IMG/VR virus record: IMGVR_UViG_3300034104_003795
Location: 26,370-90,369 of that record
DNA length: 64,000 bases
DNA from: a virus
Direction: 5' to 3' (one strand)
Both the position numbers and the translations under genes were made by a program. The notes beneath the pieces were generated by a model. It was not told the DNA's origin and did no database searches. It worked only from the letters and a program-made list of their open reading frames with translations. Positions 5,301 to 58,942 of the stretch are shown one piece after another (position 1 is the first letter of the stretch; every line of letters begins with the position of its first letter).

Positions 5301-5640
5301 AAGACAAGCATTAGTATTACCTTGGGTTCATAGATTAGATTTGAATTTCACACAAGATGTTTATATCAAAGTTAAAGATACAAAACATACTTTAAGATTC
5401 ACAGCCGATATCTATAACTTCACAAACTTCATCAGCAAAGATTGGGGTGTAAACCAAACTCCAACAACTGTAACTCCACTTAACTTCGTAAGATTGGATA
5501 CTGATGGAAAAACTCCGGTATTCTCATTCCCTTATTTAGATGGAAGAAACAAAGTTCCGTTTACTGATTCATTCAGAGATAACGTAGGATTTAGTTCTCG
5601 CTACCAAATTCAATTGGGTGTAAGATATATCTTTAACTAA
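2380..5640 (+). CDS. TonB-dependent receptor-like outer-membrane protein (SusC/RagA-type, N-terminal carboxypeptidase-regulatory-like domain)
   Basis: 1086 aa; signal peptide MKKIGKFLLMVVITLLSFGASAQE; N-terminal 'GLVSDGKAGLAGVTIVATH...GRYNLPNLKIGGPYSIHVTSIGF' CarbopepD_reg-like; Gly/Asn/Thr/Tyr-rich beta-barrel-like body ending ...GVRYIFN. Confidence 0.7.
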   Translation: MKKIGKFLLMVVITLLSFGASAQETTSEIQGLVSDGKAGLAGVTIVATHQPTGTKYSTSSRTDGRYNLPNLKIGGPYSIHVTSIGFKAEHQDDITLLLGQSHKANFILKEASTTLKEVVVTSGQSKVFNSSRNGSQEIINRQLIERIPNVNRSWKDLVKLVPSQNNLSFGGLSSQLNNVTLDGANFNNSFGLGDGTLGGQTGAQPISLDAIEQIQVNVSPFDVKFGGFAGGSINTVTRSGKNQSFGSVYQFFKNKDLQGYKVGDVTLPKQDFTYDLKGFTAGGAIVKNKLFFFVNGEQESRMEPGTQWVASDANNTPNGINVSQAKAADLDALRKFLIEKYNYDPGAYQGYQYGSVSKRLTTKLDWNINSKNSFSLKYTLLRSSADIPASNSQSVNASNGRRPSTTSMPFYGGGYTINNNADIIIGELNTRFSNNASNKLQIGYTKLRDFRGTLTSGNFPQVDILDGNGQPFTTFGYERFTYGNVLNSDVIQLNNIFNLYKGKHEFTFGTQNSFKKYSNGFSPNYAGAFRFNSLADFYASAEGTKPAAAYDLSWSLTGDFPLVGPKNTELSLFAQDKFRVKDNLTITYGLRADYVSFADNFLYNPVVDTLSKFYDGVRLNTGLAPKNALQLSPRIGFNWDVNNDQTLQVRGGTGLFQGPPPFVWISNQASNSGMALFGSITNATGYMFNPDINAYRPTPTPGLSRAYSLNVTDPNYKFPQVWKSTLAVDKKVLGWTVTAEGTYIKNINATVFQNVALPSTGNITLSDGRTRFIKRSVYDATGTAQTSANPNIGNAIYMTNANVGYVLFGTLQVQRQFKNLAVNASYTRQTAKDGTINGSTAFTMWGARPTSTNPNNFEEGFSNNYLPHRIIGSFVYGKEFIKNTRTSIGLLYEASPNSPQSSLSYTYAGDLNNDGFNGNDLIFVPKDASQIKLTNASAVGGVADTRTQEELWNQLDAFISNNKYLSTRRGQFAERQALVLPWVHRLDLNFTQDVYIKVKDTKHTLRFTADIYNFTNFISKDWGVNQTPTTVTPLNFVRLDTDGKTPVFSFPYLDGRNKVPFTDSFRDNVGFSSRYQIQLGVRYIFN

Positions 5641-8516: not shown

Positions 8517-10391
8517 TTAAACTACATCTTTTTGTTTACGGTTGATATCTCTATCGGATAACTCTATGTTTGATACGGCACTAGAACCACCTTTTGCTCT
8601 TGCTTTATTATGTGCTCTATCTGTTTCTTCTGTAGACCCTAGCAGATTTACTAACTCGTCAAAATCGGATGAAACCAATTTAGAAACGGTTGGTAGTTCG
8701 GAGCATGATATAAATCCAATTTCGCAAAAAGGATGTTTAGATGTTTTCATATCAATCATAGTAGTTTGAAATGCATGTTCAATGTGTTTGTTAAATACAT
8801 TAATAACACACGAGTGGTCATGTCCCCAAGTTAATAAATCACCAATAAAGTGTCTACCAAAAGACTTTTCAATATCTTTTGTTTCGTTTTTTTCACATTT
8901 CTTTTCAATATCTACCCAATCATTTTGGTATTCTTTAGCCAAGTCTTTTGCAGAAAGAGGATGTGGTTTTGTTGTAAAATCAAAAGCTTTCTTACTTTTC
9001 CAAAATTCAATCTGGTCCTTACCATCTTCGGTTTGCCAATAATTAGTATTTTGTGGATGTGTTATTTTAGATTCTATAAAACATACCATAAGAATACTAT
9101 GAATAAATTCATACATATTTGAATCTTTTATATCCAATTTCCACTTATCTCTTCCGTGAGAATATACATAATTGTTTCTATAATAATTCAAAGCAAACAT
9201 ACAATATATGAAAAAGGAAGCCTTCTCATAAGTTTTTTTGAATACTTTAGCGTTGGGTTGGGCATCAATATCTGATATAGCAGCCATAACTTTTACCATA
9301 TCCGTAAGAAGTTTATCACCCCATTCTATTATAAAAGGCGAATCATCTTTAAATAAGATTTTACAAATGTCTGATTTTGTTTTTACCTCAAATCTATTAA
9401 TGGATTGTGGTTGAGCATAAATTGTAGCCATTAGTACTCCTATAAAGTATTGCCAACCACCATCATTTCTCTTAAAAGTACCTTTAGAGATTGATAATGG
9501 ACTTGTTTTAGTATAGAATAATTTCTCGTATTTATTTAAATCATTTGTTCTCTCTGGCATCAAATTATCTCTAAACCAAGTAGAATATGCGGAAAATGAT
9601 TGAATTGCTTCGAATGCAAAGTCATCCCATCCAGCCGATTGGTTACTTCGTTTAACGTATGTCATTATACTACTAAAATCATTTGAATCAACAATTTCAA
9701 TTATACATAATTGACAAGATTCCAAATAACTTTGAAATATATTTTTTCTTTCATCGTAACTCAAATCTTTTGCAAAATCATATAATAACCACTCACCTGC
9801 GGAACAAAGTTTTGTTTTTAATTCATGCAAACTCGTAACGGTTTCATTATAAACTTCACCATTAATTTCCGCCTTTAAATTAGAGTATTCAACTTGAGTT
9901 GTTTTTTTCTTATTTTTAGGTTCAAGATTTCCCAAATAATCTTGTTTTATAGAATCAAATCTATGTTGTCCATTGATTATGAAATACTGACCAGTTTTTT
10001 CAGTAAAGTAATTCAGATAAATTGTTAAACTAGCAATTACACTTTCGTATCTTTCAATCAAAACATTATTTTGCTTTGATTTTTTTGATTGTTCGTACTT
10101 TATATCTTCTCGTTTTTCATCAATCTGTCTTTTGATTATATTAACAACGGTTTCTGCTTTTATAATATAATACCCTGCGGAAGTACCATACCCAGTTGTT
10201 ACTGATGCGCACATTCCCTTTTGTGTATCAAAATTCAACTCTCTCATTAAGCGATTTAGAGTTGGGTCATTGATGATTACATCAATATTATCAATTAATG
10301 ATTTTAGAGAAGTTCCAAATATTCTAGTGAGAATATCTTTAGATGCTGTTATTTTTATAGCATCGTTTTCAAATAAAGGAGAATATATCAT
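8517..10391 (-). CDS. large nuclease-like protein, possibly GmrSD-like (DUF262 ParB-like + DUF1524 His-Me finger)
   Basis: 624 aa; 'YFIINGQHRF' resembles DUF262 (I/V)DGQQR motif; C-terminal 'GHDHSCVINVFNKHIEHAF' His-rich HNH-like patch; weak, by-eye only. Confidence 0.35.
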   Translation of the reverse strand: MIYSPLFENDAIKITASKDILTRIFGTSLKSLIDNIDVIINDPTLNRLMRELNFDTQKGMCASVTTGYGTSAGYYIIKAETVVNIIKRQIDEKREDIKYEQSKKSKQNNVLIERYESVIASLTIYLNYFTEKTGQYFIINGQHRFDSIKQDYLGNLEPKNKKKTTQVEYSNLKAEINGEVYNETVTSLHELKTKLCSAGEWLLYDFAKDLSYDERKNIFQSYLESCQLCIIEIVDSNDFSSIMTYVKRSNQSAGWDDFAFEAIQSFSAYSTWFRDNLMPERTNDLNKYEKLFYTKTSPLSISKGTFKRNDGGWQYFIGVLMATIYAQPQSINRFEVKTKSDICKILFKDDSPFIIEWGDKLLTDMVKVMAAISDIDAQPNAKVFKKTYEKASFFIYCMFALNYYRNNYVYSHGRDKWKLDIKDSNMYEFIHSILMVCFIESKITHPQNTNYWQTEDGKDQIEFWKSKKAFDFTTKPHPLSAKDLAKEYQNDWVDIEKKCEKNETKDIEKSFGRHFIGDLLTWGHDHSCVINVFNKHIEHAFQTTMIDMKTSKHPFCEIGFISCSELPTVSKLVSSDFDELVNLLGSTEETDRAHNKARAKGGSSAVSNIELSDRDINRKQKDVV

Positions 10392-10974: not shown

Positions 10975-11280
10975 TTATATTGTGTTTAAATAATGTACCA
11001 ATGATTCGCCAAAAAGTTCCATATCATGTAATGTTGCTTGATATACAACATCTTCTATAATATCTCCAGTAGAATCATTCATAAGTTTTATATCATAGGT
11101 AAGTTCACTCCATTCATCATTTAATAAACCTTGCCTAAATATAACCAATGTTATTGTTCGTTTACCATCTTTATGTCTGGCCTGCAAAGCATAATGTTCT
11201 TTACCCGCATCGGTTCTACCAATCTGCCAATCACCATACCATTGGTTTTGTATCTTCTTAAAATTTTCTATTGTTAGCAT
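10975..11280 (-). CDS. MLTIENI-family small protein (array A, member 1)
   Basis: starts MLTIENFKKIQNQWYGDWQIG; conserved N-terminus and W-x-I...Y-x-F pattern. Confidence 0.6.
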   Translation of the reverse strand: MLTIENFKKIQNQWYGDWQIGRTDAGKEHYALQARHKDGKRTITLVIFRQGLLNDEWSELTYDIKLMNDSTGDIIEDVVYQATLHDMELFGESLVHYLNTI

Positions 11281-11282
11281 AA

Positions 11283-11753
11283 TTAAAAAGGTATTACTGG
11301 ATGGTATTTATCAACTATTTCTTCTACCATTCCCCAAAAGTTTTTATAATTCAAATCATGCCCTCTAAACCAACCTCTATAATCCCATTCACCTTTATCA
11401 TCGTTAATATACACTTGATACATCATTTCTGGATAATATGGTACAGGTGCAACTTGAAGTTCTCTACCCAAAGTAATATATACTCTCAATTTTTTATCTT
11501 CTCTATGTACAAGTTGAAATGTATATACTTCTTCCGATTCATCCGCAGATAGAATATCCCATCCCCAAAAAATCATCGTAGTAAGTTCTTTATCGTAATT
11601 TTGTATATGTAATTTTTTCTTTTTCATATTTGGTTCTTTTGGTGTAACTGTTACTATAACCTTTCCATAGTTTTTAGGATTGATTGGTTTACTATATCCC
11701 TTTCTAATAAGTTGGTTAGGTCTAAATCCACCTTTTAATTTATTTATTCTCAT
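11283..11753 (-). CDS. MLTIENI-family related protein with N-terminal extension (array A)
   Basis: internal 'LHIQNYDKELTTMIFWGWDILSADESEEVYTFQL' matches family pattern; start could alternatively be internal MKKKK. Confidence 0.5.
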   Translation of the reverse strand: MRINKLKGGFRPNQLIRKGYSKPINPKNYGKVIVTVTPKEPNMKKKKLHIQNYDKELTTMIFWGWDILSADESEEVYTFQLVHREDKKLRVYITLGRELQVAPVPYYPEMMYQVYINDDKGEWDYRGWFRGHDLNYKNFWGMVEEIVDKYHPVIPF

Positions 11754-11754
11754 A

Positions 11755-12063
11755 TTACATTGATGCCTTTAAGCAACTACTAAACGTTCTCATCACATTT
11801 GTAAATTTTCCAAACCATTTCGCAGTTATAATATGAATTGGACAATTAGGATAGTTTAATCGGTATTCCCATGCCTTCTCAATATCATTATAATGCCCAA
11901 TCTTACTTACCTCAATCCAAATATAACGGTGTACACCGGAACTATCATCTCTGAATTGAAATCTATAATTTGTATCCGTTTCAATAGCCTCAGTACAAAT
12001 AAATCTTTCTTTATGAAACATCGCTGTTACTATCTTATCGTAATTTTGTATTATTAGTTTCAT
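11755..12063 (-). CDS. MLTIENI-family divergent member (array A)
   Basis: MKLIIQNYDKIV...; family-like pattern. Confidence 0.5.
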   Translation of the reverse strand: MKLIIQNYDKIVTAMFHKERFICTEAIETDTNYRFQFRDDSSGVHRYIWIEVSKIGHYNDIEKAWEYRLNYPNCPIHIITAKWFGKFTNVMRTFSSCLKASM

Positions 12064-12067
12064 TCAT

Positions 12068-12376
12068 CTATTTTTTATGTTCTGATTGAATATAACATTC
12101 CATCATCAACCAAAATTGCTCCTTATCTTTAAATTGAGAAAGTGGTAGTTGCCCTTTCCAAATTATATTCGTATAAGAACGATACATAACACTAACCTCA
12201 ACTTTACCATTTTTAATTTCTCTCCCTAATTGTACCGCAGCATGTGTAGTATTACCATCAATACATTTCAATTTAAATGTATAATACTGATTGGTTTCTT
12301 GTGCAAAATATATTACCCAATTTTGTATTAGATAATTCTTTAAATCTGCGTAATTACTAATATCTAACTTTTTCAT
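12068..12376 (-). CDS. MLTIENI-family divergent member (array A)
   Basis: 'NYLIQNWVIYFAQETNQYYTFKL' family pattern. Confidence 0.5.
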   Translation of the reverse strand: MKKLDISNYADLKNYLIQNWVIYFAQETNQYYTFKLKCIDGNTTHAAVQLGREIKNGKVEVSVMYRSYTNIIWKGQLPLSQFKDKEQFWLMMECYIQSEHKK

Positions 12377-12384
12377 TTATTATA

Positions 12385-12687
12385 TTATCTTTGTAACCCA
12401 CCCATTATTTCGGTGAATTTGTTCACTAAATTATTTATATCTTTTATATAGTCAAGCGTTACCGCATATCCTATTGGTTTATCATCTAATGTAAATTTAT
12501 ATTCTCCACTACTTTCAGCAATTCTATTAAGAGATAATTTCCTTACATCATCTATTTTACCTGTTAAAGGGTTTTTTCTTAACAATACGAAGTGATACCA
12601 ATTGTCAGTTTCACTAATACTATCCACCAACCAATGTTTGTCAAACGCATATTGGTTTAATTTATTTACATTTAATATTGTTAGCAT
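12385..12687 (-). CDS. MLTIENI-family member (array A)
   Basis: MLTILNVNKLNQYAFDKHWLV... Confidence 0.6.
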   Translation of the reverse strand: MLTILNVNKLNQYAFDKHWLVDSISETDNWYHFVLLRKNPLTGKIDDVRKLSLNRIAESSGEYKFTLDDKPIGYAVTLDYIKDINNLVNKFTEIMGGLQR

Positions 12688-12688
12688 G

Positions 12689-12964
12689 TTATATTAATTC
12701 ATCTATTAAAAATCTTACAAACTCATCTCTATCTCCCATACACTCTATTGGTAGATAATGTTCTTTTTGTGTTTCTAAACAATAGACATGATAATCACCA
12801 TGCTTTGTTTTCTTCCTATCAATACAAAGGTTAAACATATCAAAAGGTGAACCATTGTGTATTGTCTTTATATAGTAGATATCATCTCCTATTGACAAGT
12901 TATGTATCTTCCAATGGCCTATATACTTACCAGCCAATGTATTTATGTTTTGTATTGTTAGCAT
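12689..12964 (-). CDS. MLTIENI-family member (array A)
   Basis: MLTIQNINTLAGKYIGHWKIH... Confidence 0.6.
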   Translation of the reverse strand: MLTIQNINTLAGKYIGHWKIHNLSIGDDIYYIKTIHNGSPFDMFNLCIDRKKTKHGDYHVYCLETQKEHYLPIECMGDRDEFVRFLIDELI

Positions 12965-12965
12965 T

Positions 12966-13286
12966 TTATATCTTTTCTTTGTTCATTAAAATATATTCCA
13001 ATTGGTTAATCATATTATCTTTATCGGCTATGAAATCTGCGGTGACACATACATCGGTTCGTTTTGAATCAAATATGAAGAAGTACGATAAGTTAGGTGA
13101 ACCAACACCTCTAATACCAGTTCTCTCCAACATAATCTTATGTCTTGTTGTGAATCCACTCCCATCCCAATCCTTAACCAATTCAAATATGTAAGTATCG
13201 GGTCTACCTTCATATATCAGTTGTATTGTCCAACCATCTGCCAAAGGTCTCCCTTCTAATTTCAATATGTTTTCTATTGTTAGCAT
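12966..13286 (-). CDS. MLTIENI-family member (array A)
   Basis: MLTIENILKLEGRPLADGWTIQ... Confidence 0.6.
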   Translation of the reverse strand: MLTIENILKLEGRPLADGWTIQLIYEGRPDTYIFELVKDWDGSGFTTRHKIMLERTGIRGVGSPNLSYFFIFDSKRTDVCVTADFIADKDNMINQLEYILMNKEKI

Positions 13287-13287
13287 C

Positions 13288-13668
13288 TTAAATTAAATTT
13301 TGGTCTTTAGCCCATCTCATTATCACCTTGGTTGCGTACATTTCTAAATTGTTTTGGAATAGTTTCATATCCTTTATTTGTGATATCTTTAACCAATCAT
13401 CACTATCCATTAAATTATTTTCCATTTGGTATATTCCTTTTTCATCCGGCGTTCTACGAAGATAGATACAAAGTGGTACATCATAATCCGAAACGGCTTT
13501 ATATTCAAATCGGTATGATTCATCCGTCTCACCTGTTACTGCAGTTACATCACCGGGAAACTCAATAACTCGCTCACACTCCCATTCTAATAATTCAGAA
13601 GGGACGTACAAGTTTTGAAGTTTTATTTTAGTACCTACTAATTTTTCTATGTTCTTTATTGTTATCAT
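13288..13668 (-). CDS. MLTIENI-family member (array A)
   Basis: MITIKNIEKLVGTKIKLQNL... Confidence 0.55.
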   Translation of the reverse strand: MITIKNIEKLVGTKIKLQNLYVPSELLEWECERVIEFPGDVTAVTGETDESYRFEYKAVSDYDVPLCIYLRRTPDEKGIYQMENNLMDSDDWLKISQIKDMKLFQNNLEMYATKVIMRWAKDQNLI

Positions 13669-14036
13669 CCGAATACTAAATTTTTAATATCATCATATTG
13701 TTTAATACTAGCACCATTCAAACTATTTTTTACAATATACACACCAAACCTTCTCAACGAGCCCATCATTACTCTTTTAGAATTAAAGGAATTTGACCTA
13801 ACTCTTAAAGGATACGCCATATCTTTGGAATGATTAACTAAATAACAACCCCAACCCAATTCTTTTGGATGGGCTGAACTTCTCATAATGATAAGATAAC
13901 AAATGTGGTTCTCTATACCATCGTTGTACATAAACTCAATAGCATACAAATCTCTTTGAGCAACACAATATATTACCGATATCTTATCATCGGTCCATCC
14001 ACCTAACTTTTCAACACCATCAATAGTTAATCTCAT
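13665..14036 (-). CDS. MLTIENI-family member (array A)
   Basis: MRLTIDGVEKLGGWTDDKISVIYC... Confidence 0.55.
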   Translation of the reverse strand: MRLTIDGVEKLGGWTDDKISVIYCVAQRDLYAIEFMYNDGIENHICYLIIMRSSAHPKELGWGCYLVNHSKDMAYPLRVRSNSFNSKRVMMGSLRRFGVYIVKNSLNGASIKQYDDIKNLVFG

Positions 14037-14127
14037 ATTATACGTTTAGCAGGATATCAATAACATTAATAAGAGTATAAGCAAATACACTCCTAACATT
14101 TTCATTGTAGTCCAATCGTTTTTCTTT

Positions 14128-14487
14128 TTAGTTTTCATCCCAATACTTTTTACCTTTACGAACAACCTCATGCATACAAGCGATGAAGTATCCAAATTTC
14201 TTTATATCATCTACATCCAAATACTCAATCGTTACACCATGCAATCCCATCCAAAACAATTCGTACTTACCAGATACGTTTGGGTTTCGGTAAAGATAAA
14301 TTTTGAAACTATCTTCCCATTGTTTATATGGATTATTGGTTTTGGTGATGAAAGGTATTGCCGGAAAATGGAATACATACGCACTCCCATTAACTATCTC
14401 ACCTTTCTCTACCGTTATCTTTTCAATAGTACGATTGTGGAAATGGTGACCGGTAAGTTTGTTGATACCTTCTATGTTTAAGACCAT
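14128..14487 (-). CDS. MLTIENI-family divergent member (array A)
   Basis: MVLNIEGINKLTGHHF... Confidence 0.5.
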   Translation of the reverse strand: MVLNIEGINKLTGHHFHNRTIEKITVEKGEIVNGSAYVFHFPAIPFITKTNNPYKQWEDSFKIYLYRNPNVSGKYELFWMGLHGVTIEYLDVDDIKKFGYFIACMHEVVRKGKKYWDEN

Positions 14488-15617: not shown

Positions 15618-15941
15618 TTACTTTGTGTTTAATGCGGGTTTGTGTTTCTTAACCAATTCCATCTCTCTAATGTGAGCGGCCTCTTTACCTCTTACTACAT
15701 CTAATACCGATACTTCATATACCAATTCTAAATCATCAATGTAGTTGAACATATCCATATACAATTTCCAATCCCAATTTTCCCTTCTCGCTCTACTAAA
15801 ATGTTTTTGTAACCGAACCTTTGCGGAACGAAGGAACGCCCGACCGGTTGAAGCCGTAATACCAATATATTCGTTACCATTGAAGGTATTTGTAATAAGG
15901 TATATAATATGATTCCTATCTGTACGTTTCTTCCTACTCAT
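15618..15941 (-). CDS. GIY-YIG domain endonuclease (free-standing, homing-endonuclease-like)
   Basis: 'HIIYLITNTFNGNEYIGIT' = GIY-x10-YIG motif near N-terminus; start set at internal ATG 15939-15941 (MSRKKRTD...) because the ORF-track start at 16073 is TTG and a promoter-like motif lies at 15963-15994. Confidence 0.6.
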   Translation of the reverse strand: MSRKKRTDRNHIIYLITNTFNGNEYIGITASTGRAFLRSAKVRLQKHFSRARRENWDWKLYMDMFNYIDDLELVYEVSVLDVVRGKEAAHIREMELVKKHKPALNTK

Positions 15942-15962
15942 ATCTAACTTAACTTTTATACC

Positions 15963-15994
15963 TAAAATTACGAAAATTAATTGAGACCACCAAA
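15963..15994 (-). promoter_or_regulatory. Bacteroidetes-type promoter candidate (minus orientation: -33 TTTG ... -7 TAATTTTA)
   Basis: +strand 'taaaattacgaaaattaattgagaccaccaaat'; same architecture as other minus-strand promoters in window. Confidence 0.35.
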
Positions 15995-16079
15995 TTCTAC
16001 CTAAAAGTTCTCGATTGGAAATCAACCCTTTATAGATATATTTTAACCCCATACATAAGTCATTGACCGTCAACCAAGT

Positions 16080-22447: not shown

Positions 22448-22642
22448 CTATTCTATTTCGTTTGTTGTACTATTGGTAGCGAGTAACTCGTATTTTTTAT
22501 TGATTAGGTTTCGTATTTGGGTACAAAGCTCGTATTCCTCAATCCCAATACATTCTTTTAATAACCATTGGAGACGTTGTATTTTATGTTGAAGTTCAAG
22601 GCGTTCCCTTTGTGTTAAACCGTGTGTGTGATTAGTATCCAT
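22448..22642 (-). CDS. hypothetical coiled-coil protein (64 aa)
   Basis: ORF only. Confidence 0.4.
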   Translation of the reverse strand: MDTNHTHGLTQRERLELQHKIQRLQWLLKECIGIEEYELCTQIRNLINKKYELLATNSTTNEIE

Positions 22643-22702
22643 AACATTGTAATTAATGCGGTTATCAATAGGAGCTCGGACCCATTACCTTTAATACGCC
22701 CC

Positions 22703-22894
22703 TTATTTATTCTTTTTGTTTTCATTTGGTTTATGTTCGTAATCCCATTCAGTTCCCCTACGGATTACGATATCTTTTTTGTTTTCTTTTGTACCGTATT
22801 CCTTACTATATACCAATATCTTTAAGGTTATGTAGAACCCTATAAAACCTATTAGAGCAAGGATATCAAAGAGGTTTATTTCATTACTCGGCAT
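22703..22894 (-). CDS. small membrane protein (63 aa)
   Basis: single TM helix; followed by further tiny hydrophobic ORFs 22895-23200. Confidence 0.4.
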   Translation of the reverse strand: MPSNEINLFDILALIGFIGFYITLKILVYSKEYGTKENKKDIVIRRGTEWDYEHKPNENKKNK

Positions 22895-23198
22895 CTTCTA
22901 TTCTATTGATTTGTTTTATTAGGTCTATTACACACCATACAGTCATTATACCTATTAACCCTATTACTATTCCCATAACTTATTTGTTTTTATTTTGTCT
23001 CCTTATTTCCCTATATATCAGTATTACTACTATTAACGTTATTAATCCCATTATCTATTAGTCTTTGTTTATATCCTTATGATTTTCGTTTATGTATCTG
23101 TCTACTATATACTGACCTATTCCATACCCTACTAACATTCCTATTACTATTACTACTATTAACATCTGTACTATAATTATTTTTATCTACGTCCGCTC

Positions 23199-23471
23199 TT
23201 ATTCCCAAACAAACTCCCAACTCCTATCAGCTCTTTGAACACTTAAACGAAATGGACCAACTCTTGGATGTGTCCCTCTTATAACCCATTCGGTTGGAGT
23301 AGTTATCAATTCCCTATCTACAAAATCCGCTGGTATACACGCCTTGTAATGTTTCTCTATTGCTTCAAACCCCATACCAGCAGTAACTCCAAAACCCCCA
23401 CCACCAGTGATATACCTTTCAAATGATTCTTGCCACCATGTATCCGTGTTTGTACTAAAATCTATTGCCAT
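23199..23471 (-). CDS. hypothetical protein (90 aa)
   Basis: ORF only. Confidence 0.45.
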   Translation of the reverse strand: MAIDFSTNTDTWWQESFERYITGGGGFGVTAGMGFEAIEKHYKACIPADFVDRELITTPTEWVIRGTHPRVGPFRLSVQRADRSWEFVWE

Positions 23472-23829
23472 ACTATTTGTTTTTAATTGTTTGTTATAAA
23501 TATATATTCAAATCTTATTTTTATTTCCTATTAATCCATTCTCTATTAATCAAGGCAGACACTATCAAAAATTTTCCCTATCGACCCGAACACCGATTCA
23601 CCGATACGATATATACTACAAGTACTGAATATACTATATGTATTATACTATGTATTACTATTGTCCGATTTTATTTTCTTATAGTTCGGAAATTACTTGC
23701 ACCCTTTGTTAGTTCCCTCAATTCCTTTACTTCATATAACAGGCAAAACATACCTATTGTAGCTACTATCATTAATATAAAGGTTATCCCCTCTAATATA
23801 TCTTTTGTTTTTAGTTCGTTATTCATATT

Positions 23830-24156
23830 TTATTGATTTACTATATTTTTTATATGAGTGTCCAAGCAAAAAGTAAAACTACTTATGGTCCTCATATACT
23901 CTATATCCCATGCCGAACGTCCATGAAAGCTTTGTTTTACTAGTCCGGTCTCCATTACATACCCACCTATTGTTTTTACTCTATTCAATTTTATAGTCAA
24001 CTCATCACGCCTAAAACCCCCGATTGTCCAATAACCTACCCGTTTATGGATTACAAATATATAGTTTTGTTCACCTATAAACATTTCACCTATCCGCCAT
24101 TCGGGTGTACCGGCAAACTTACTATTGAGTATGTTTATGTTTTCTATTGTTAGCAT
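23830..24156 (-). CDS. MLTIENI-family member (array B)
   Basis: MLTIENINILNSKFAGTPEWRIG... Confidence 0.6.
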   Translation of the reverse strand: MLTIENINILNSKFAGTPEWRIGEMFIGEQNYIFVIHKRVGYWTIGGFRRDELTIKLNRVKTIGGYVMETGLVKQSFHGRSAWDIEYMRTISSFTFCLDTHIKNIVNQ

Positions 24157-24157
24157 A

Positions 24158-24466
24158 CTATTCTTTTAACATTTTATCAATTAAGTTTCCTATAAAATAC
24201 GGCGTTATTTGATGCATACTCAACCATCTATTTACTTTACTTTGGTCAAAATCTTTATATAACCTATAAACGGGTTCGTTTCTGCCACTTACATATTGGC
24301 TCTCTCTATTCAAATAAAATACATTTTGTACCTTACCGTTTACAGAAACAGCAAATGCATATACATCCTTATAAACATCGGTTGTTTCTATCGCTTCACT
24401 TATATACCATATGTTAATAGATGAACCCACATTTATTATTTTATCTATGTTTTGTATTGTTAGCAT
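24158..24466 (-). CDS. MLTIENI-family member (array B)
   Basis: MLTIQNIDKIINVGSSINIWYIS... Confidence 0.6.
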   Translation of the reverse strand: MLTIQNIDKIINVGSSINIWYISEAIETTDVYKDVYAFAVSVNGKVQNVFYLNRESQYVSGRNEPVYRLYKDFDQSKVNRWLSMHQITPYFIGNLIDKMLKE

Positions 24467-24783
24467 AGTATATATTTGTTTACTAAAAATTCTATTGAGC
24501 TTACAAACTGTCTCATGTCCGATATATCCTTTGTTCTTAAATATATTCTACTCGTAGGATTACTATTATCATACATCGCGTAGGTTGTTTCCATATTAGG
24601 ACCAAATACGTCCGAAGTTCTAAGTAAAACTAATAACTCGTCAGATTTTGATTTACGCGGACATCTTAAATGTATTTGATATGCTCTTTCATATTGAGTA
24701 GTATTTCTTATATAATATTCTACAACACGATTCTTAACTATTGGTACATCTAATATCTTATATGTATTTTCTATTGTTAGCAT
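24460..24783 (-). CDS. MLTIENI-family member (array B)
   Basis: start set at internal MLTIENTYKILD (ORF track started 54 nt upstream at alternative codon). Confidence 0.55.
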   Translation of the reverse strand: MLTIENTYKILDVPIVKNRVVEYYIRNTTQYERAYQIHLRCPRKSKSDELLVLLRTSDVFGPNMETTYAMYDNSNPTSRIYLRTKDISDMRQFVSSIEFLVNKYILC

Positions 24784-24793
24784 ATTATTTGTT

Positions 24794-25117
24794 TTAATTA
24801 CTGAAACTATGCAATTGACCACCCAATATACCAACAAACATTTTCAATTGTAAGTAACCTTTTGTTAGTATTGTATAACCATTATCTTGGTCATTATACA
24901 TTTTCCACTCACCTAACGTACTACTAAATTCATTATATCTTAATAGTTTAAAGTTTACATACTTTGGATGCTTTACGCCAAATGTAGTACCATACTCAAA
25001 TCTTACTTTAATAATATAATCATGCTTTTGTTCCTCTATACTCATTACTACCCAATGTGCATGTGGTGTATGTATTTTTTTTCCTACTATCTTTTGTATG
25101 TTTTTTATTTTTAGCAT
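24794..25117 (-). CDS. MLTIENI-family member (array B)
   Basis: MLKIKNIQKIVGKKIHTPHAHWVV... Confidence 0.55.
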   Translation of the reverse strand: MLKIKNIQKIVGKKIHTPHAHWVVMSIEEQKHDYIIKVRFEYGTTFGVKHPKYVNFKLLRYNEFSSTLGEWKMYNDQDNGYTILTKGYLQLKMFVGILGGQLHSFSN

Positions 25118-25127
25118 ATATTATTTT

Positions 25128-25451
25128 TTATATATCGTATGAGGTATCAATCATTTCAGTCATTCGTTTTATCAATAACCTCTTATCACTTATAGTTTCA
25201 ATTGGTATGTATGTTTTAATCTTATACATTCTTTGCATACCCGGCCCACCTGCTGATATTCCAAATTCATATCCAATTCCATGTAGGTTTTGTTTATTCA
25301 AAGCAAATATTTCTTTTGGGCCTTTTCTATTTTCAATTAAGATTAGGTATTCATCGGTGTCATCTATAATTTTGTCCACTACCCAATACATACCCATCTT
25401 ATCATAAAACGAATCACTTATTAACCGTCCTCTATTTTCTATTGTGAGCAT
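25128..25451 (-). CDS. MLTIENI-family member (array B)
   Basis: MLTIENRGRLISDSFYDKMGMYWVV... Confidence 0.6.
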   Translation of the reverse strand: MLTIENRGRLISDSFYDKMGMYWVVDKIIDDTDEYLILIENRKGPKEIFALNKQNLHGIGYEFGISAGGPGMQRMYKIKTYIPIETISDKRLLIKRMTEMIDTSYDI

Positions 25452-25758
25452 ATATCATTCCAGTTTGTATGTGTAACTCTAATATGAAGTTTTTCATTGT
25501 AAGGTTTTCCGGCGTTACATAAACATTTTGTTTTAGTTTTGCCGATGTCATTTCATATCCCCTACTATTCCTTATAGTTCGCATCAATTTATATACAATA
25601 CCATCGTTTATACTTGCCACATTGTTTTCCATCAAAGGAAATACCCCAAAACTATAATGGTCATAATATGCTCTTGCGATACCAATTATAAACTTCCGTC
25701 CGCTACTCAATTGGAATTCCTTACCGTCTATATTTTGTATGTTTTCTATTGTCAACAT
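25432..25758 (-). CDS. MLTIENI-family member (array B)
   Basis: MLTIENIQNIDGKEFQLSSGRKFII... Confidence 0.6.
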   Translation of the reverse strand: MLTIENIQNIDGKEFQLSSGRKFIIGIARAYYDHYSFGVFPLMENNVASINDGIVYKLMRTIRNSRGYEMTSAKLKQNVYVTPENLTMKNFILELHIQTGMIYAHNRK

Positions 25759-25918
25759 TCATTCCGTTTATTAGGTCTTTTAAAATAACATTCCAATTAT
25801 CCGCATTGTCCATTACTACTCTTTGATATTGCTTTAATATCGTATCCCTTTGCTCCTTTGTTAATTCTACGTCTAATTCTTGCTCTATTCCTTTGATATC
25901 GTCTATTGTAACATTCAT
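25721..25918 (-). CDS. hypothetical protein (65 aa)
   Basis: ORF only. Confidence 0.4.
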   Translation of the reverse strand: MNVTIDDIKGIEQELDVELTKEQRDTILKQYQRVVMDNADNWNVILKDLINGMNVDNRKHTKYRR

Positions 25919-25927
25919 ACGATTTAT

Positions 25928-26236
25928 TTATTTAGATATTGCTTTACTAATTATGTCCACAATCCTATTCAACCGCCATTCACTCTTTTTTTCTCTTATT
26001 GTTTTCGGTTCGTCATCCTTTGTATTGTTATATACATTGACGGATGTATTGTATTGACTTATTAAGGATTGATAATAGATTTGATGTAAGTGATGCGGGA
26101 TGTTTGTAAAATCAGCTTCAACAGTTACAGGCATTTTAGTACCTGTTCCGTATATTTGTATTGAAGTTTTGATTTGTACTTTACCATTACCCTTCATTGT
26201 AAGGTGTCTACTATCCGTTGAAATGTTTATACTCAT
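25928..26236 (-). CDS. hypothetical protein, paralog of 38114-38419
   Basis: shared 'V..EADF.NIP....Q' core (VTVEADFTNIPHHLHQ vs VKIEADFDNIPEKYQ). Confidence 0.5.
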   Translation of the reverse strand: MSINISTDSRHLTMKGNGKVQIKTSIQIYGTGTKMPVTVEADFTNIPHHLHQIYYQSLISQYNTSVNVYNNTKDDEPKTIREKKSEWRLNRIVDIISKAISK

Positions 26237-26366
26237 CCGAAACTATTTAATACTTTTTTAATTACTCTTTTTACCATTCGTTGTGCCACAAATAATGCAA
26301 TTAGTGCACCAACTCCGGCTCCTATTAAGAAGCCCCAAATAAATTGAAATTCTATACTCATATTTT

Positions 26367-26675
26367 TTATTTTAAAGATTCTAACATATCTTTTATCAAA
26401 TCAGTCACATATACAGTGCCTAACTTCAAATCCGGTTTATTTAATATCCTTCTAATTGGTATTCCACTTCCCGATTGATTAGACCAAAACCATAATTCAT
26501 AAAGTGCCGAATCACTCTTACCTATTGCGGTTCGTTCTAAATTAACTTGCAATCGTAGGCCATTGGATTTTCTTAATTCAATTAGGTATGCACTATCCAA
26601 TGTTACTACTTTACCTATTCTCCATTCACCTACATCCTGTTTGTAAAGTTTTTCTATGTTTACTATTGTTAGCAT
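26367..26675 (-). CDS. MLTIENI-family member (array B)
   Basis: MLTIVNIEKLYKQDVGEWRIGKV... Confidence 0.6.
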   Translation of the reverse strand: MLTIVNIEKLYKQDVGEWRIGKVVTLDSAYLIELRKSNGLRLQVNLERTAIGKSDSALYELWFWSNQSGSGIPIRRILNKPDLKLGTVYVTDLIKDMLESLK

Positions 26676-26676
26676 A

Positions 26677-26973
26677 CTAAATAAATGATTCTAAATGATT
26701 ACTGAATATATCAATATTTTTCATATCGTCTCTGTGTATATACTTTTTTTCATTTCCACATTCTAATTTGTATTGGTGTCCAAGTTTAAACGGTGAAAAA
26801 CTTCTGTCCAAAACTATTTTCTTGTCCCAACCATTTTCAGTTTGCTCAATAAAAATTACATAGTGATTCAAATGTGGTCTTATTGAAGTTACAACCCATT
26901 CCATTGGACCGGCACTTCCGCTACCATGCAATATAGTACCTAATAACTTTTTTTCGTTTTCTATTGTTAGCAT
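26677..26973 (-). CDS. MLTIENI-family member (array B)
   Basis: MLTIENEKKLLGTILHGSGSAGPMEWVV... Confidence 0.6.
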   Translation of the reverse strand: MLTIENEKKLLGTILHGSGSAGPMEWVVTSIRPHLNHYVIFIEQTENGWDKKIVLDRSFSPFKLGHQYKLECGNEKKYIHRDDMKNIDIFSNHLESFI

Positions 26974-26974
26974 C

Positions 26975-27337
26975 TTAATAAGTGTTTGGTAGCATATATC
27001 TTAATACATCAATAAATTTATCCATTGTGTCTATATCGGTACAATATCCACGTTGTACTTGTCCATAACAAAACAATTCATATGTATTTTCATGTTGAAC
27101 TCTATAAAAACTTAACTTAGCTTCCTCAATTCTTGCACGAGTCATAGAATAGTATTGCTGATTAGGTGAACTTATAACAGGCACTTGCGTTTGGAATTGA
27201 AATACATATGTAATTTCGTCATCCATCGTTACATTGACGTTTGTTACACACCAAATCAAATTACCGGTTGCACTTGGTATAATTGTTTTTAATAACTTTT
27301 CAGGATTTTTTAATATCATTTTATTTGTTATTATCAT
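26975..27337 (-). CDS. MLTIENI-family divergent member (array B)
   Basis: MIITNKMILKNPEKLL...GNLIWCV. Confidence 0.5.
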   Translation of the reverse strand: MIITNKMILKNPEKLLKTIIPSATGNLIWCVTNVNVTMDDEITYVFQFQTQVPVISSPNQQYYSMTRARIEEAKLSFYRVQHENTYELFCYGQVQRGYCTDIDTMDKFIDVLRYMLPNTY

Positions 27338-27548
27338 CTAAACATTTGTTACAACTTCCGTCCTCATTCAATAATGTACTATGTATTGGACAGATATCGT
27401 TTCGTTTATCTTCGTCCAAAACTATATAACGATACCCATCTTTTGTTTGAGTAAACTCGCCCAACTTCGCTATTTGTTTTACTACATTCATTTTTCCGGT
27501 ATTCGCCATCAAAGCAATTGTGTCCTCTAAATAAATTATTTTTGCCAT
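27321..27548 (-). CDS. hypothetical Cys-containing protein (75 aa)
   Basis: 'CPIHSTLLNEDGSCNKC'. Confidence 0.4.
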   Translation of the reverse strand: MAKIIYLEDTIALMANTGKMNVVKQIAKLGEFTQTKDGYRYIVLDEDKRNDICPIHSTLLNEDGSCNKCLDDNNK

Positions 27549-27757
27549 TCTTTACGATGTTTTATAAACCAATAAATGTGAATCATTAATACACAAGCAT
27601 TAACTACAATTGTAGGTCCCGCCATAATACCCAATCCGTAAACTATCCAAAACATAGAACCGATTGAATTTATTAAACGCAATCGGTAAATGTTTTCTAT
27701 TGTGAACGAATAAAGGACCACTACAGTTCCTATGTATCCGAATATATCCCAATTCAT
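27536..27757 (-). CDS. small membrane protein (73 aa, 2-3 TM)
   Basis: hydrophobic helices. Confidence 0.45.
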   Translation of the reverse strand: MNWDIFGYIGTVVVLYSFTIENIYRLRLINSIGSMFWIVYGLGIMAGPTIVVNACVLMIHIYWFIKHRKEWQK

Positions 27758-27759
27758 AA

Positions 27760-28011
27760 CTAATCAAATAAATCTTTAAATAATCCGGCTTCAACTCTTT
27801 TACCAAATGCTTCACCTAATAATTCAATTGTAAGTTCATTAGCTTTATCTTGCCTTTCAACTTCCTTACTGAATCTTTCAGGTGTTAATTCGTCCAACTC
27901 TTTGATATTGAAATGCTGTGTTGGTATTGTGAATACTACATACCCCTCGTTTGTTTTACGAATATCAATCCCGTCTTTAATCCATTCTTTTAACTCAATC
28001 ATTTTCTTCAA
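27760..28011 (-). CDS. hypothetical protein (83 aa)
   Basis: ORF only. Confidence 0.4.
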   Translation of the reverse strand: MKKMIELKEWIKDGIDIRKTNEGYVVFTIPTQHFNIKELDELTPERFSKEVERQDKANELTIELLGEAFGKRVEAGLFKDLFD

Positions 28012-28198
28012 TGTTAAATTCTATATTGTCAATAATTGTTCTACTAACTGGATAATATGCAATTCCAATTGCTTTACCCTGCTCATTTCGTTTCCAAAAT
28101 TCGTAAAGACCGGAGTCTGACCAAGATATTCCATCTGCTTCAACTTTACGATTCATATAAGATTCGCCTGTTATAACTAAAATGTGGTATGCATTCAT
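27995..28198 (-). CDS. hypothetical protein (67 aa)
   Basis: ORF only. Confidence 0.4.
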   Translation of the reverse strand: MNAYHILVITGESYMNRKVEADGISWSDSGLYEFWKRNEQGKAIGIAYYPVSRTIIDNIEFNIEEND

Positions 28199-28201
28199 AA
28201 A

Positions 28202-28648
28202 TTAAATGTTTGTTTCATTAATCACTTCAATTGAAATAATAGAATCACCTTGTCTGATAAAATCAACCACTTCAACCCCTTCAATTACTTTACCGAAGCA
28301 AGTGTGATTGCCGTCCAAATGTGCAACTCCTGCTCTATTGTGACAAATAAAGAATTGTGAACCACCAGTATTTCGACCGGCGTGTGCCATACTTAATACA
28401 CCCCTATCATGAAATTGCTTTGGTGCATTCACCTCACACGGAATTGTATAACCAGGTCCGCCATCACCTCTACCGTTCGGACATCCACCTTGAACCATAA
28501 AGTTTGGAATAACTCTATGAAAGTTTAATCCATTGTAAAATCCTTTTTCAACTAATTTTTTAAAGTTACCAGATGCAATTGGTGTCTCGTCATATAGTTC
28601 GACTACCATGTTACCTTTTGCTGTTTTAAATAATACTTTTGTTGCCAT
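28202..28648 (-). CDS. peptidyl-prolyl cis-trans isomerase, cyclophilin type
   Basis: 'FHRVIPNFMVQGGCPNG...GPGY', 'GVLSMAHAGRNTGGSQFFICH' cyclophilin signatures. Confidence 0.85.
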   Translation of the reverse strand: MATKVLFKTAKGNMVVELYDETPIASGNFKKLVEKGFYNGLNFHRVIPNFMVQGGCPNGRGDGGPGYTIPCEVNAPKQFHDRGVLSMAHAGRNTGGSQFFICHNRAGVAHLDGNHTCFGKVIEGVEVVDFIRQGDSIISIEVINETNI

Positions 28649-28653
28649 AATTT

Positions 28654-28965
28654 TTATTTTATAATCATTAATAATTCTTGTTCTCTGAATAAATAATATT
28701 CTTTGTTTTCTAGTTTCACAATTTGTGCAGTCCCGATTTGTGGCATCATAACCTTATCGCCTACTTTCACACTCATTGGAATTTTAACCCCATCGTTTGT
28801 GTATATACCTTCACCAACTGAAACTACAACTCCAATCTTTGTATCTTCTGCTCTAGCGGTTTCTGGAATGATAATACCACCTGTTGTTTTTGTTTGTACT
28901 TCTTCTTTCTCAATAAGTACTCTGTCCGCTAACGGCTTTGCTAATTGAAATGTTTCTTTGCTCAT
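28654..28965 (-). CDS. groES: co-chaperonin GroES (Cpn10)
   Basis: 103 aa; 'KPLADRVLIEKEE..TKTTGGIIIPETA....IGVVVSVGEG' and C-terminal 'YYLFREQELLMII' GroES pattern. Confidence 0.8.
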   Translation of the reverse strand: MSKETFQLAKPLADRVLIEKEEVQTKTTGGIIIPETARAEDTKIGVVVSVGEGIYTNDGVKIPMSVKVGDKVMMPQIGTAQIVKLENKEYYLFREQELLMIIK

Positions 28966-31511: not shown

Positions 31512-32486
31512 TTATTGAATGCTTTTAAACAACTGCGGTACAGTACCATATACTGGCAATTTACCATCCCACTTTTGTACATATTCTAATTGAATAAGTA
31601 ATGGTGTCAATGTTTGTTGCTTCATTCTATTTGCTTCAGCTTCAGCTTTTGCCGATGTAAGTAATGCTTGTGCGTTACCTTCCGCAGTTGCTACTTTAAT
31701 CTTTGCTTCAGCTTCGGCAGTTTTTACTTTATTTTCAGCCATCAATGCCGCCTGAACTGCGTTATTCTTAGCCTCAATTGCCGTTTTGAATGTTTCAGGA
31801 TATACTAAATTTGATGTAAACTGATTAACAATAAATCCTTCTGCTAATAGTTGCCCTTCTAATATCTTACGAACCTCAACTTCATATGCTTGTCTATTAC
31901 CAATTAATTCATCAGCTGTATATTTGTTGGTTGCCAATCTGAATGCGTCAAATACGGATGTTTTCAAAAACCCTTCTTCTATTTGGTCCAAACTTCTACG
32001 ATATTTAGCGAAGATTGATGGAACTTTCTCTCTCTTTACTGAATAGTTAATGATTGGTGAAACGTGAAACTCACTACCATCTTTACTATTTACTACAAAT
32101 GAATTTTCACCTGTATATTCTTTGTGTTGAATGAATGTAGGGAACTCATAGATTGAATGTGTAATTGGATTATAGAATACCATACCAGTTACTTCAGTCA
32201 CATCACTTACACCTTTGTTATCACCATAAAGGTTTACTTTAACACCCACGTGTCCTGCATCAATTCTTTCGCAAGACTTAAATAAAAATACCATTAGAAA
32301 TAATCCAACGATACTACCACCGATAATCTTTGTCATCTTTTTAATTTTTAATTGTTGTTCTAATTTATATTGTTGTAATTGTTCTTCACGCTCTTTTTGT
32401 TGGCGAGCATACCTTTCTTCAAACGATTCGAATGCCATATTACTTTGTTTTTTTAGTGTACTTACGTTTTGGTTTACTTTGCTCAT
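31512..32486 (-). CDS. SPFH/band-7 (prohibitin/HflK-like) membrane protein
   Basis: N-terminal TM 'IIGGSIVGLFLMVFLF', SPFH core, C-terminal Ala/Glu-rich 'AEAEAKIKVATAEGNAQALLTSAKAEAEA' coiled coil. Confidence 0.65.
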   Translation of the reverse strand: MSKVNQNVSTLKKQSNMAFESFEERYARQQKEREEQLQQYKLEQQLKIKKMTKIIGGSIVGLFLMVFLFKSCERIDAGHVGVKVNLYGDNKGVSDVTEVTGMVFYNPITHSIYEFPTFIQHKEYTGENSFVVNSKDGSEFHVSPIINYSVKREKVPSIFAKYRRSLDQIEEGFLKTSVFDAFRLATNKYTADELIGNRQAYEVEVRKILEGQLLAEGFIVNQFTSNLVYPETFKTAIEAKNNAVQAALMAENKVKTAEAEAKIKVATAEGNAQALLTSAKAEAEANRMKQQTLTPLLIQLEYVQKWDGKLPVYGTVPQLFKSIQ

Positions 32487-35477: not shown

Positions 35478-35840
35478 TTACATTTTTTGATTAATAATTT
35501 CAGCCAAACTTTTTAATACTTTAAAAAATAATTCAGGTGTTTTGAGTGCACCATTATTAACTTCTACCTTACCATTATGCCCTTCATTGGTCATAGCCGT
35601 TATTTTATATGTTGGTACTATTTCAGTATCATATTCAATGCTAAATACAACATGCGGCGGAACAAGATAGTTTGTACCTTTGTTTTCAAATTTAGCTAAT
35701 ACAACTGCTCCCCAATTACCGTTTGATGAACCTACTTTATCCAAAGTATTTACACTCTCAACTTTATATACAGCTTCATTTGCATGGGCTATTGGAAAAT
35801 TAAACTCACTTCCTTTTATTTTTTCTATACCTACTATCAT
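35478..35840 (-). CDS. hypothetical protein (120 aa)
   Basis: ORF only. Confidence 0.45.
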   Translation of the reverse strand: MIVGIEKIKGSEFNFPIAHANEAVYKVESVNTLDKVGSSNGNWGAVVLAKFENKGTNYLVPPHVVFSIEYDTEIVPTYKITAMTNEGHNGKVEVNNGALKTPELFFKVLKSLAEIINQKM

Positions 35841-36178
35841 AATAATTTATTTATTAGGGTTACTACATAAGTTTTAAAGTAATCCTTTTTTCTAAAATGA
35901 ACTTTACTAACATAATCTTCTATTAATGCCGGCGTAGATTCACCTTTTTTATAAACACAAACCTTATTCATTTTGTTTATATTATCCGCGAATATACCTA
36001 CTGAATATTTCACATTTGAAACAGGAGCAACTACTCTTTTTATATCAAAGTATTCAATCAGTTCCGGCTCACTACTTGTACGAATAATATTATTAGGGGC
36101 TATCACAAACACATCACCATTCTTAGCAAAGAGTTCGGAACGATATAATTTTTCAAAATTTTCTATTTTCTTAACCAT
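35837..36178 (-). CDS. hypothetical protein (113 aa)
   Basis: ORF only. Confidence 0.45.
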   Translation of the reverse strand: MVKKIENFEKLYRSELFAKNGDVFVIAPNNIIRTSSEPELIEYFDIKRVVAPVSNVKYSVGIFADNINKMNKVCVYKKGESTPALIEDYVSKVHFRKKDYFKTYVVTLINKLL

Positions 36179-58845: not shown

Positions 58846-58861
58846 ATTATTAAGTTGTTTG

Positions 58862-58942
58862 TGCCCCAAGAGAGATTCGAACTCTCACACCTCTCGATAT
58901 CAGTTCCTAAAACTGATGTGTCTACCGTTCCACCATCAGGGC
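58862..58942 (-). tRNA. tRNA-Leu (anticodon TAG)
   Basis: type-II cloverleaf; acceptor GCCCTGA/TTGGGGC, anticodon loop TTTAGGA, 13-nt variable arm, T-arm GAGAG-TTCGAAT-CTCTC. Confidence 0.8.

Follow-up and report, generated by a model that had tools for sequence, protein, structure and literature searches.

In T4-type bacteriophages less than 50 bp of homology is sufficient for recombination, and open reading frames (ORFs) are shuffled at conserved linker sequences (PMC2839356). The linkers known as PeSLs are intergenic elements of about 100 bp that combine a strong early promoter with a stem-loop terminator and flank unrelated ORFans, and their shuffling is a feature of hyperplastic genome regions (Arbiol et al., 2010, PMC2839356; PMC4122927). 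Here we describe a viral locus in which the repeated element lies inside the genes themselves. The DNA analysed is a stretch of 64,000 nt, referred to below as the window (positions 26,370 to 90,369 of the IMG/VR virus record IMGVR_UViG_3300034104_003795), and the subject is a family of genes for proteins of about 100 aa, arranged in two arrays, A and B, whose members typically open with a common start motif. Like the hyperplastic regions of T4-type phages, the arrays are plastic regions of small genes, and the motif resembles a PeSL in being a short cassette-boundary repeat that appears to act as the crossover point for the insertion, deletion and replacement of ORFs between close relatives. 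Unlike a PeSL, the motif is only 17-21 nt long, is not intergenic but lies in the coding sequence from the ATG onwards, brings with it neither promoter nor terminator, and joins paralogs in a translationally coupled string; of the properties of PeSLs, it is thus the ORF-rearranging recombination that is found here. We consider it reasonably probable that the arrays form a cassette system, in which a single domain of about 100 aa has been diversified, set head to tail in two syntenic slots and reassorted by crossover at the start motif.

Most phage genomes carry few paralogs. Among giant phages, the virion paralog families A and B of SPN3US and phiKZ have 2-20 members (PMC5694885), and these resemble the present family in their T4-like recombination, multiple members and copy number that varies between relatives. 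They differ in consisting of larger virion proteins found by mass spectrometry, not of motif-delimited cassettes of 100 aa, and no sequence or Pfam relationship between them and the present family was found.

The nine ORFs that an earlier note on this DNA had placed at 23830-25758 and 26367-27337 are all present, on the minus strand. They are numbered B1-B9 in transcription order, and three small ORFs that are not numbered among them lie between B3 and B4. The E values listed were obtained with a profile hidden Markov model (HMM) built from 83 public family members, none of them from the window or orthologous to a window gene, from which the N-terminal 12 residues had been removed. B7 is counted from its ATG, the ORF listing having given a longer ORF with a TTG start.

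26975-27337, minus strand: B1, 120 aa, a divergent gene that opens array B (MIITNKMILKNPEKLL), without the canonical motif; 98% ortholog in the related contig L014; E 7.8e-7
26677-26973, minus strand: B2, 98 aa, with the exact motif ATGCTAACAATAGAAAA at its start; E 2.3e-13
26367-26675, minus strand: B3, 102 aa, best-connected member (hub) of the family; E 8e-11
26233-26361, minus strand: hydrophobic mini-ORF of 42 aa interrupting the array; kept in L014, with a ratio of non-synonymous to synonymous substitution rates (dN/dS) of 0.26
25928-26236, minus strand: non-family gene of 102 aa interrupting the array; kept in the related contig L001 (92% nucleotide identity) and in L014
25721-25918, minus strand: gene of 65 aa with a non-family body and a degenerate, frameshifted motif, ATGAATGTTACAATAGAC, at its start
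25432-25758, minus strand: B4, 108 aa (ATGTTGACAATAGAAAAC), overlapping B5 by 20 nt; E 4.8e-7
25128-25451, minus strand: B5, 107 aa, its start motif being the left breakpoint of the B5-B8 presence/absence difference from L001; E 7.6e-12
24794-25117, minus strand: B6, 107 aa, with the variant N-terminus MLKIKN; E 2.4e-8
24460-24783, minus strand: B7, 107 aa, its stop codon lying inside the B8 motif (ATGCTAA overlap); E 3.4e-14
24158-24466, minus strand: B8, 102 aa; E 1.9e-9
23830-24156, minus strand: B9, 108 aa, closing array B, with the right breakpoint of the difference from L001 at its start motif; metagenomes contain about 90 of its orthologs; E 2.9e-10

Neighbouring array genes are separated, stop to start, by -20 to +14 nt; a typical cassette overlaps the stop codon before it or begins 0-2 nt behind it, and the upstream stop codon often falls within ATGCTAA. 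Around array B (22500-28500) no terminator-like site was found, promoter-like matches numbered 25 against 37 in shuffled sequence, and neither array contains a TTG-N17-21-TAnnTTTG promoter motif. Because of this tight packing, the absence of terminators and the paucity of promoter-like sites, array B is read here as belonging to a single long block of co-transcribed and translationally coupled genes. The three interrupting ORFs, described earlier as a transmembrane mini-ORF and two unrelated small genes, all exist and the 42-aa product is hydrophobic; the 102-aa gene has no Pfam match and scores only E >6 against the family HMM. The 65-aa gene is not fully unrelated, since it opens with the degenerate motif and its slot in L014 is occupied by a family member. 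Just upstream of the array, a 73-aa membrane-protein gene (27536-27757, minus strand) holds an internal motif-like copy at 27690-27706 (minus strand), TTCACAATAGAAAACAT, which encodes FTIENI and may be a relic of a motif-mediated fusion.

Array A occupies positions 10975-14487 on the minus strand and comprises ten family genes, also on the minus strand.

14128-14487, minus strand: A1
13665-14036, minus strand: A2
13288-13668, minus strand: A3
12966-13286, minus strand: A4
12689-12964, minus strand: A5
12385-12687, minus strand: A6
12068-12376, minus strand: A7
11755-12063, minus strand: A8
11283-11753, minus strand: A9
10975-11280, minus strand: A10

Array B had been taken for a second array of the same family, a claim that was to fall if its genes failed to align with those of array A beyond the first seven residues. 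It survives, as the homology runs through the whole protein. A profile made from array A alone recovers B2-B9 among the 170 ORFs of the window (E 5e-5 to 6e-10), with B1 reaching no better than E 0.027; the reverse search also works. When the first 12 residues are cut from the array profiles, the other array still ranks top, although weakly. With the N-trimmed leave-window-out profile, every one of the nine B genes is recovered (E 3e-14 to 8e-7), as are nine of the A genes at E 2e-18 to 1e-6 and A2 at E 0.007. The two arrays together hold 19 genes, near the 20 or so paralogs first estimated, and they take up 6,281 nt or 9.8% of the window instead of the roughly 7 kb and more than 10% given before. 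A probable divergent member lies outside the arrays:

35478-35840, minus strand: gene next to the DNA ligase gene, beginning MIVGIEKIKG; N-trimmed HMM E 7.9e-4

Two further isolated ORFs, at 35837-36178 and 49481-49795 (both minus strand), have family-like N-termini (MVKKIENFEKLY and MLIENWNKIYG) and marginal profile scores (E 0.01-0.5), and it is only possible that they are very divergent members.

Beyond the window, a HMMER scan of 1.84 billion representative proteins gave at least 391 clusters at 50% identity (E <=1e-3), nearly all of 90-125 aa and matched end to end, and a word-indexed search added 125 clusters at 90% identity, on contigs of up to 278 kb. Every family protein bears the name 'hypothetical protein' in its source. 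Among 132 members examined, none matched PHROGs at E <=1e-3, PADLOC gave just three single-member noise matches and Pfam four such, with no meaningful match to a profile of the anti-defence, defence or immunity families (SUKH and Imm included) of these three collections; scans of the window members against the same collections likewise gave nothing meaningful. The family profile had no significant match among PDB sequences (best E 0.44, coatomer), Foldseek found nothing significant in PDB or among the viral structures of BFVD, and neither megablast of positions 23000-28000 nor tblastn of B3 matched any of 50,697 deposited phage genomes. A search of the literature on tandem paralogs of jumbo phages in Bacteroidota found nothing that describes the family. 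When 185,579 bacterial and archaeal genomes were scanned for the motif, as DNA and not as protein, 19 matches were obtained, which we attribute to chance because none encodes a family member; this is weak evidence that the family may be restricted to viruses.

AlphaFold2 models based on the 132-sequence alignment (mean predicted local distance difference test (pLDDT) 90.5 for B3 and 92.0 for A6; predicted template modelling score 0.82) share one topology: residues 7-10 form a short helix, five beta-strands follow in succession, and a pair of helices makes up the C-terminal end. For the family as a whole the predicted fold is accordingly an antiparallel sheet of five strands, preceded by a short helix and followed by a C-terminal one. 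The hallmark N-terminus is MLTI-x-N-x-x-K-L, and the residues conserved family-wide are M1, L2, I4 and N6 (each in at least 90%), K9, W18, the invariant Y30, R48 and Y59; mean information content is 2.55 bits over positions 1-10 against 1.07 over the remainder. A set of DNA mimics was considered and rejected, as the isoelectric points range from 4.7 to 9.6 and the proteins are not an acidic set.

The predicted fold recalls the type III secretion chaperones (CesT/SycH-like), and the cyclophilin-type peptidyl-prolyl isomerase and GroES (Cpn10) genes lie side by side at 28202-28965 (minus strand), four small genes upstream of array B, a pairing kept in relatives. It might be supposed from this weak resemblance of fold and from these neighbours that the family consists of chaperone-like or adaptor proteins with one client per paralog. 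We think this very unlikely. The resemblance is one of architecture only. The sequences are not similar, and the predicted fold is not the alpha-beta3-alpha-beta2-alpha fold of those chaperones, since it lacks their central dimerization helix. Foldseek gave no significant match, and neither the Pfam scan of 132 members nor the profile search of PDB sequences placed the family among the secretion chaperones.

The internal proteins of T4-type phages (IPI, IPII, IPIII and the products of the polymorphic IP locus) are likewise small and highly diverse, yet alike in a conserved N-terminus of about 10 residues; their repertoire varies between phages and acts against host defence (PMC3012670). The window comes from a T4-like phage, the internal proteins of T4 form a diverse anti-restriction set with nothing in common but their capsid-targeting sequence (CTS) (PMC3012670), and virion paralog families of giant phages reach 20 members (PMC5694885). 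The family could therefore be imagined as packaged in the head by a T4-style CTS and injected with the DNA against host defences. The CTS of T4 ends in a prohead-protease site (L/I-x-E) at which it is cleaved off, and the bodies behind it have unrelated folds. The cleavage motif of this protease is (L/I)-x-E in T4 and (A/S/G)-x-E in phiKZ-like phages. The present family shares the conserved N-terminal peptide, of 10-20 residues in the T4 proteins, on divergent proteins, and differs in having homologous bodies of one fold and no conserved Glu at such a site: position 5 is K in 45, E in 37 and Q in 24 of the 132 members, the P3 residue is Thr and not Leu or Ile, and no other Glu is conserved within residues 1-20. 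Moreover, residues 1-10 are modelled at pLDDT 88-93 in B3 and A6, helix 7-10 included, and the hydrophobic pattern suggests that they pack against the core; in the A9-type subfamily the motif is internal, behind an extension of about 40 residues. A targeting peptide would also leave unexplained that the start of these genes is conserved at synonymous sites, and we regard packaging in the head as improbable.

This synonymous-site conservation is the most unusual feature of the arrays, and had not been noticed in the earlier note. The cassette start reads ATG CTA ACA ATA nnn AAC ATA (codons 1-7, 17-21 nt), and 10 of 12 canonical window members begin ATG CTA ACA ATA; Leu2 is CTA in 10 of 12 window copies, compared with 8% of Leu codons genome-wide. 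The statement of the earlier note that every member starts at TTCTATTGTTAGCAT was too strong, since only three of the nine array B genes match the 17-mer ATGCTAACAATAGAAAA exactly and eight do so within two mismatches, B1 lacking the motif. Searched across the window at up to three mismatches, the 17-mer gave 13 matches, all at family starts, where 1.08 were expected. Motif copies in relatives were gathered by an exact 17-mer scan of viral contigs, and ascertainment was corrected for: the codon survey below covers 106 family genes from other loci and leaves out copies retrieved through the exact 17-mer.

Leu2: CTA in 62 of 87; background 0.12
Thr3: ACA in 61 of 64 (eight most frequent codons tabulated); background 0.46
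Ile4: ATA in 86 of 92; background 0.61
Asn6: AAC in 57 of 94; background 0.25
Ile7: ATA in 59 of 62 (eight most frequent codons tabulated); background 0.61

The share of CTA at Leu2 is thus 71-83% against a background of 8-12%, and Leu10 of the same 106 copies has ordinary codon usage. The preference for CTA is found only where Leu directly follows the ATG (96 of 122, compared with 1 of 11 offset or internal motifs; Fisher p = 7e-6). With gene bodies at about 20% identity, saturation of synonymous sites would be expected, which argues that the first 21 nt or so are constrained or homogenized as DNA or RNA. Two simpler reasons for CTA were considered. The +1-frame TAA in ATGCTAA accounts for the frequent -7 overlaps and not for the choice of CTA over TTA, as both give TAA, and this reason was rejected; avoidance of a restriction site could be behind CTA, in that ATG-TTA-ACA would create GTTAAC, but it would leave the ACA, ATA and AAC biases unexplained. 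In the more distant relative L062, two cassettes (at 8593 and 10001) start with GTG instead of ATG (GTGCTTACAATAGAAAAC and GTGCTCACAATAGAAAAC) and keep the rest of the motif, including the C of the first Leu codon.

Constraint at the level of RNA has to be weighed at this point. The motif might be mainly an RNA or translation signal, such as a start-region operator for a RegA-like translational repressor, a context for re-initiation in tightly coupled genes where the host makes no use of Shine-Dalgarno sequences, or a codon ramp dependent on the tRNAs of the phage, with crossovers as a by-product. This would fit the restriction of CTA to Leu codons that adjoin the ATG, the tight packing of genes, at spacings of -7 to +14 nt and with the upstream stop often in ATGCTAA, and the rarity of a Shine-Dalgarno-like core, which precedes just 4 of 133 genes, below the 8% background. 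The window also carries a set of tRNA genes:

58861-63850, minus strand: cluster of 25 tRNA genes, including tRNA-Leu(UAG), tRNA-Thr(UGU), tRNA-Asn(GUU) and two tRNA(CAU)

One tRNA(CAU) could be an AUA-reading Ile tRNA, and the phage tRNAs could decode the conserved CTA, ACA, ATA and AAC codons of the start. Yet no non-family gene of the window uses the motif and the few other genes with Leu2 use TTA or CTT; since all 13 matches are family starts, the motif is not a general initiation optimum. TTA is moreover at least as rich in A and U as CTA, and neither a repressor gene nor an RNA structure was identified. A signal of this kind, which would be compatible with a role in recombination, seems to us possible but doubtful as the main function of the motif.

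The evidence that recombination takes place at the motif comes from comparison with related phages. In L014, which is 95% identical, B1-B9 are found in order together with one extra cassette. A genuine family gene of 105 aa (L014 5374-5691) stands there in the slot of the 65-aa gene of the window; the latter may represent the capture of a non-family body in a cassette slot. In L001-type phages B4 is followed directly by B9, and B5-B8 are absent. At the nucleotide level the L001 junction follows the 3' end of window B4 up to ATGCT and then B9 from AACATAAAC onward, and because it falls in the motif, both breakpoints of this four-gene difference lie inside the motifs of B5 and B9. An independent junction in L026 joins the 3' end of B8 to the body of B6 within ATGCTAA. 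Orthologs of window genes occur in permuted order in L021, L035 and L040, which have 15-16 cassettes (e.g. B8, B6, B4 in L021), and L062 has three cassettes in slot B; among relatives, copy number, for which a comparison had been suggested, ranges from 3 to about 15 per slot, and gene order is shuffled. Homology blocks found by blastn are typically one gene long, running from a family ATG to 16-38 nt into the next gene, and of the 54 distinct ends of such blocks, 33 fall in the interval from -15 to +40 nt around a family ATG, where the null mean is 7.7 and none of 10,000 permutations gave more than 18. Motif variants also switch among orthologs, B6 having MLKIKN in the window and MLTIEN in an ortholog of 87% identity, as is expected if crossovers fall inside the motif. 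From these comparisons the start motif appears to be the crossover point for deletion, insertion, replacement and reordering of whole genes among related phages.

Ordinary tandem duplication followed by divergence would require no such role for the motif. The N-terminus would be kept for folding, the codons would reflect chance or mutational bias, and breakpoints would be seen at gene boundaries because only such products are viable. The hydrophobic pattern of L2, I4, I7 and L10 does fit packing in the core, N6 could cap helix 7-10, and the amino-acid motif is kept even where it is internal. Against this stand the codon usage at five motif positions, far off background in more than 100 independent copies when that of Leu10 is not, and junctions that lie inside the 17-mer at nucleotide resolution; illegitimate recombination would not repeatedly give precise in-frame joints. 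Duplication and divergence of this ordinary kind are, in our view, an unlikely account of the whole.

The duplications themselves are old. The bodies of the paralogs share about 20% identity, pairwise BLAST of N-trimmed sequences barely rises above noise, and each paralog has its own orthologs in relatives; for these reasons the gene bodies give no sign of recent conversion between the arrays. Whether the arrays are reciprocally monophyletic or intermixed had been posed as a check, and the answer, as far as the poor resolution allows, is that they are intermixed: in N-trimmed profile-profile comparison (hhalign) B3 is linked to A4, A6 and A10 at 92-96%, as strongly as to B2 (92%). Collinear duplication of a whole array, suggested by the reciprocal best BLAST pairs A1-B1, A6-B6 and A10-B9, was rejected, as profile-profile comparison does not support it. 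The suggestion of repeated duplication with possible recombination between arrays thus holds in that both processes have shaped array B; the exchange documented here is motif crossover between cassettes of related phages, not from array to array. Compared with L014, dN/dS is 0.04-0.36 for B1-B5 and B7-B9 (0.05 for B2), which shows that most copies are under purifying selection and functional. B6 is the sole cassette above 1 (dN/dS 1.22), with its changes concentrated in the C-terminal half. B7 has a synonymous divergence (dS) of 0.37 from L014 where its neighbours have 0.05-0.16, and because of this several-fold excess it is likely to have been replaced by a diverged allele.

Returning to the cassette system, we hypothesize that the in-frame start motif is the only DNA homology common to non-allelic cassettes and that, for this reason, the homologous recombination of the phage crosses over there. 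The outcome would be the precise, in-frame loss, gain, replacement or reordering of whole genes, and every crossover would re-homogenize the motif. The motif may be selected for crossover, may be selected as an mRNA or translation signal, or may be kept uniform by the crossovers; any of the three could apply. The proteins would be co-transcribed cytoplasmic factors for host interaction or counter-defence, with a common conserved face for a shared partner or role and variable surfaces for differing specificities, and an arms race would keep the repertoire diverse. The family has expanded, its copies are polymorphic for presence and absence, one of them has a dN/dS above 1, and the arrays lie among small genes of the same strand; judged by this evolutionary behaviour, a host-interaction or counter-defence repertoire is most likely.

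It is also conceivable, though we hold it to be unlikely, that selection maintains the motif as a dedicated cassette-exchange signal, by which this phage clade would rapidly reassort some 400 or more variants of one small binding domain, as a programmed system of anti-defence-adaptor diversity. The motif would then be a coding-sequence counterpart of the integron attC site or of a PeSL, perhaps served by a phage-encoded nuclease or recombinase, and would capture foreign ORFs too, such as the 65-aa gene; the N-terminus and the W18/Y30/R48/Y59 face would dock on one machine of the host or the phage, shared by all variants, while different targets, defence proteins for instance, would be picked by the variable surfaces. 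Inspection of the motif ATGCTAACAATAGAAAAC by eye shows no inverted repeat of the attC kind, no inverted-repeat search having been run, and no integrase is among the genes annotated, the window not having been scanned for integrases specifically. About 1 kb from array A, a 144-aa ORF (15618-16052, minus strand) has a GIY-YIG-like pattern by eye (IYLITN...NEYIGIT) and no Pfam match; if it encodes a homing-type nuclease, it could matter for local recombination. Downstream of array A, a 624-aa ORF (8517-10391, minus strand) has no Pfam match and is kept beside an APRT-like gene in L005.

The window comes from an uncultured large T4-like phage. Relatives are found on contigs of 160-278 kb, and the DNA ligase is 45-46% identical to those of a 595-kb uncultured phage and of the T4-like phage Cr30. 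Distant relatives share the order ligase, GroES, cyclophilin, slot B, slot A, TonB receptor gene and helicase, so that A and B are two fixed positions with variable content; in relatives the two slots are separated by a gene with a Kyano_Gp96 domain, which, like the cluster of 25 tRNA genes, points to a large phage. Among possible hosts, the Bacteroidota are the probable group, and the rarity of Shine-Dalgarno-like cores (4 of 133 genes) agrees with this. The best matches of the helicase are in crAss-like, Bacteroides and Cellulophaga phages, and the receptor gene is as follows:

2380-5640, plus strand: SusC-like TonB-dependent receptor of 1,086 aa with CarboxypepD_reg, Plug and outer-membrane barrel domains, its gene occupying the same place in the relatives L005 and L060

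For a phage, a SusC-like receptor is an uncommon auxiliary gene, and it points to a host among the Bacteroidota. The window further contains genes for a 511-aa flavoprotein of the tryptophan-halogenase family (53257-54792, minus strand; Pfam E 7e-89) and for a 324-aa SPFH/Band-7 domain protein (31512-32486, minus strand).

As paralog families and linker shuffling are each known from large T4-like phages (PMC5694885, PMC2839356), the arrays do not constitute a new category. The novelty lies in the protein family and in a linker that is a short coding stretch conserved at synonymous sites. A previously undescribed family that fills about 10% of a 64-kb stretch and is found in at least 391 metagenome clusters contributes appreciably to viral dark matter, and its fold is confidently predicted; its start motif appears to be the linker-sequence idea of modular evolution at work inside coding DNA. 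The motif would offer a simple handle for finding and engineering cassettes. If the proteins are indeed counter-defence or host-takeover factors of Bacteroidota phages, nature would have provided in these arrays a library of variants built on a single scaffold.

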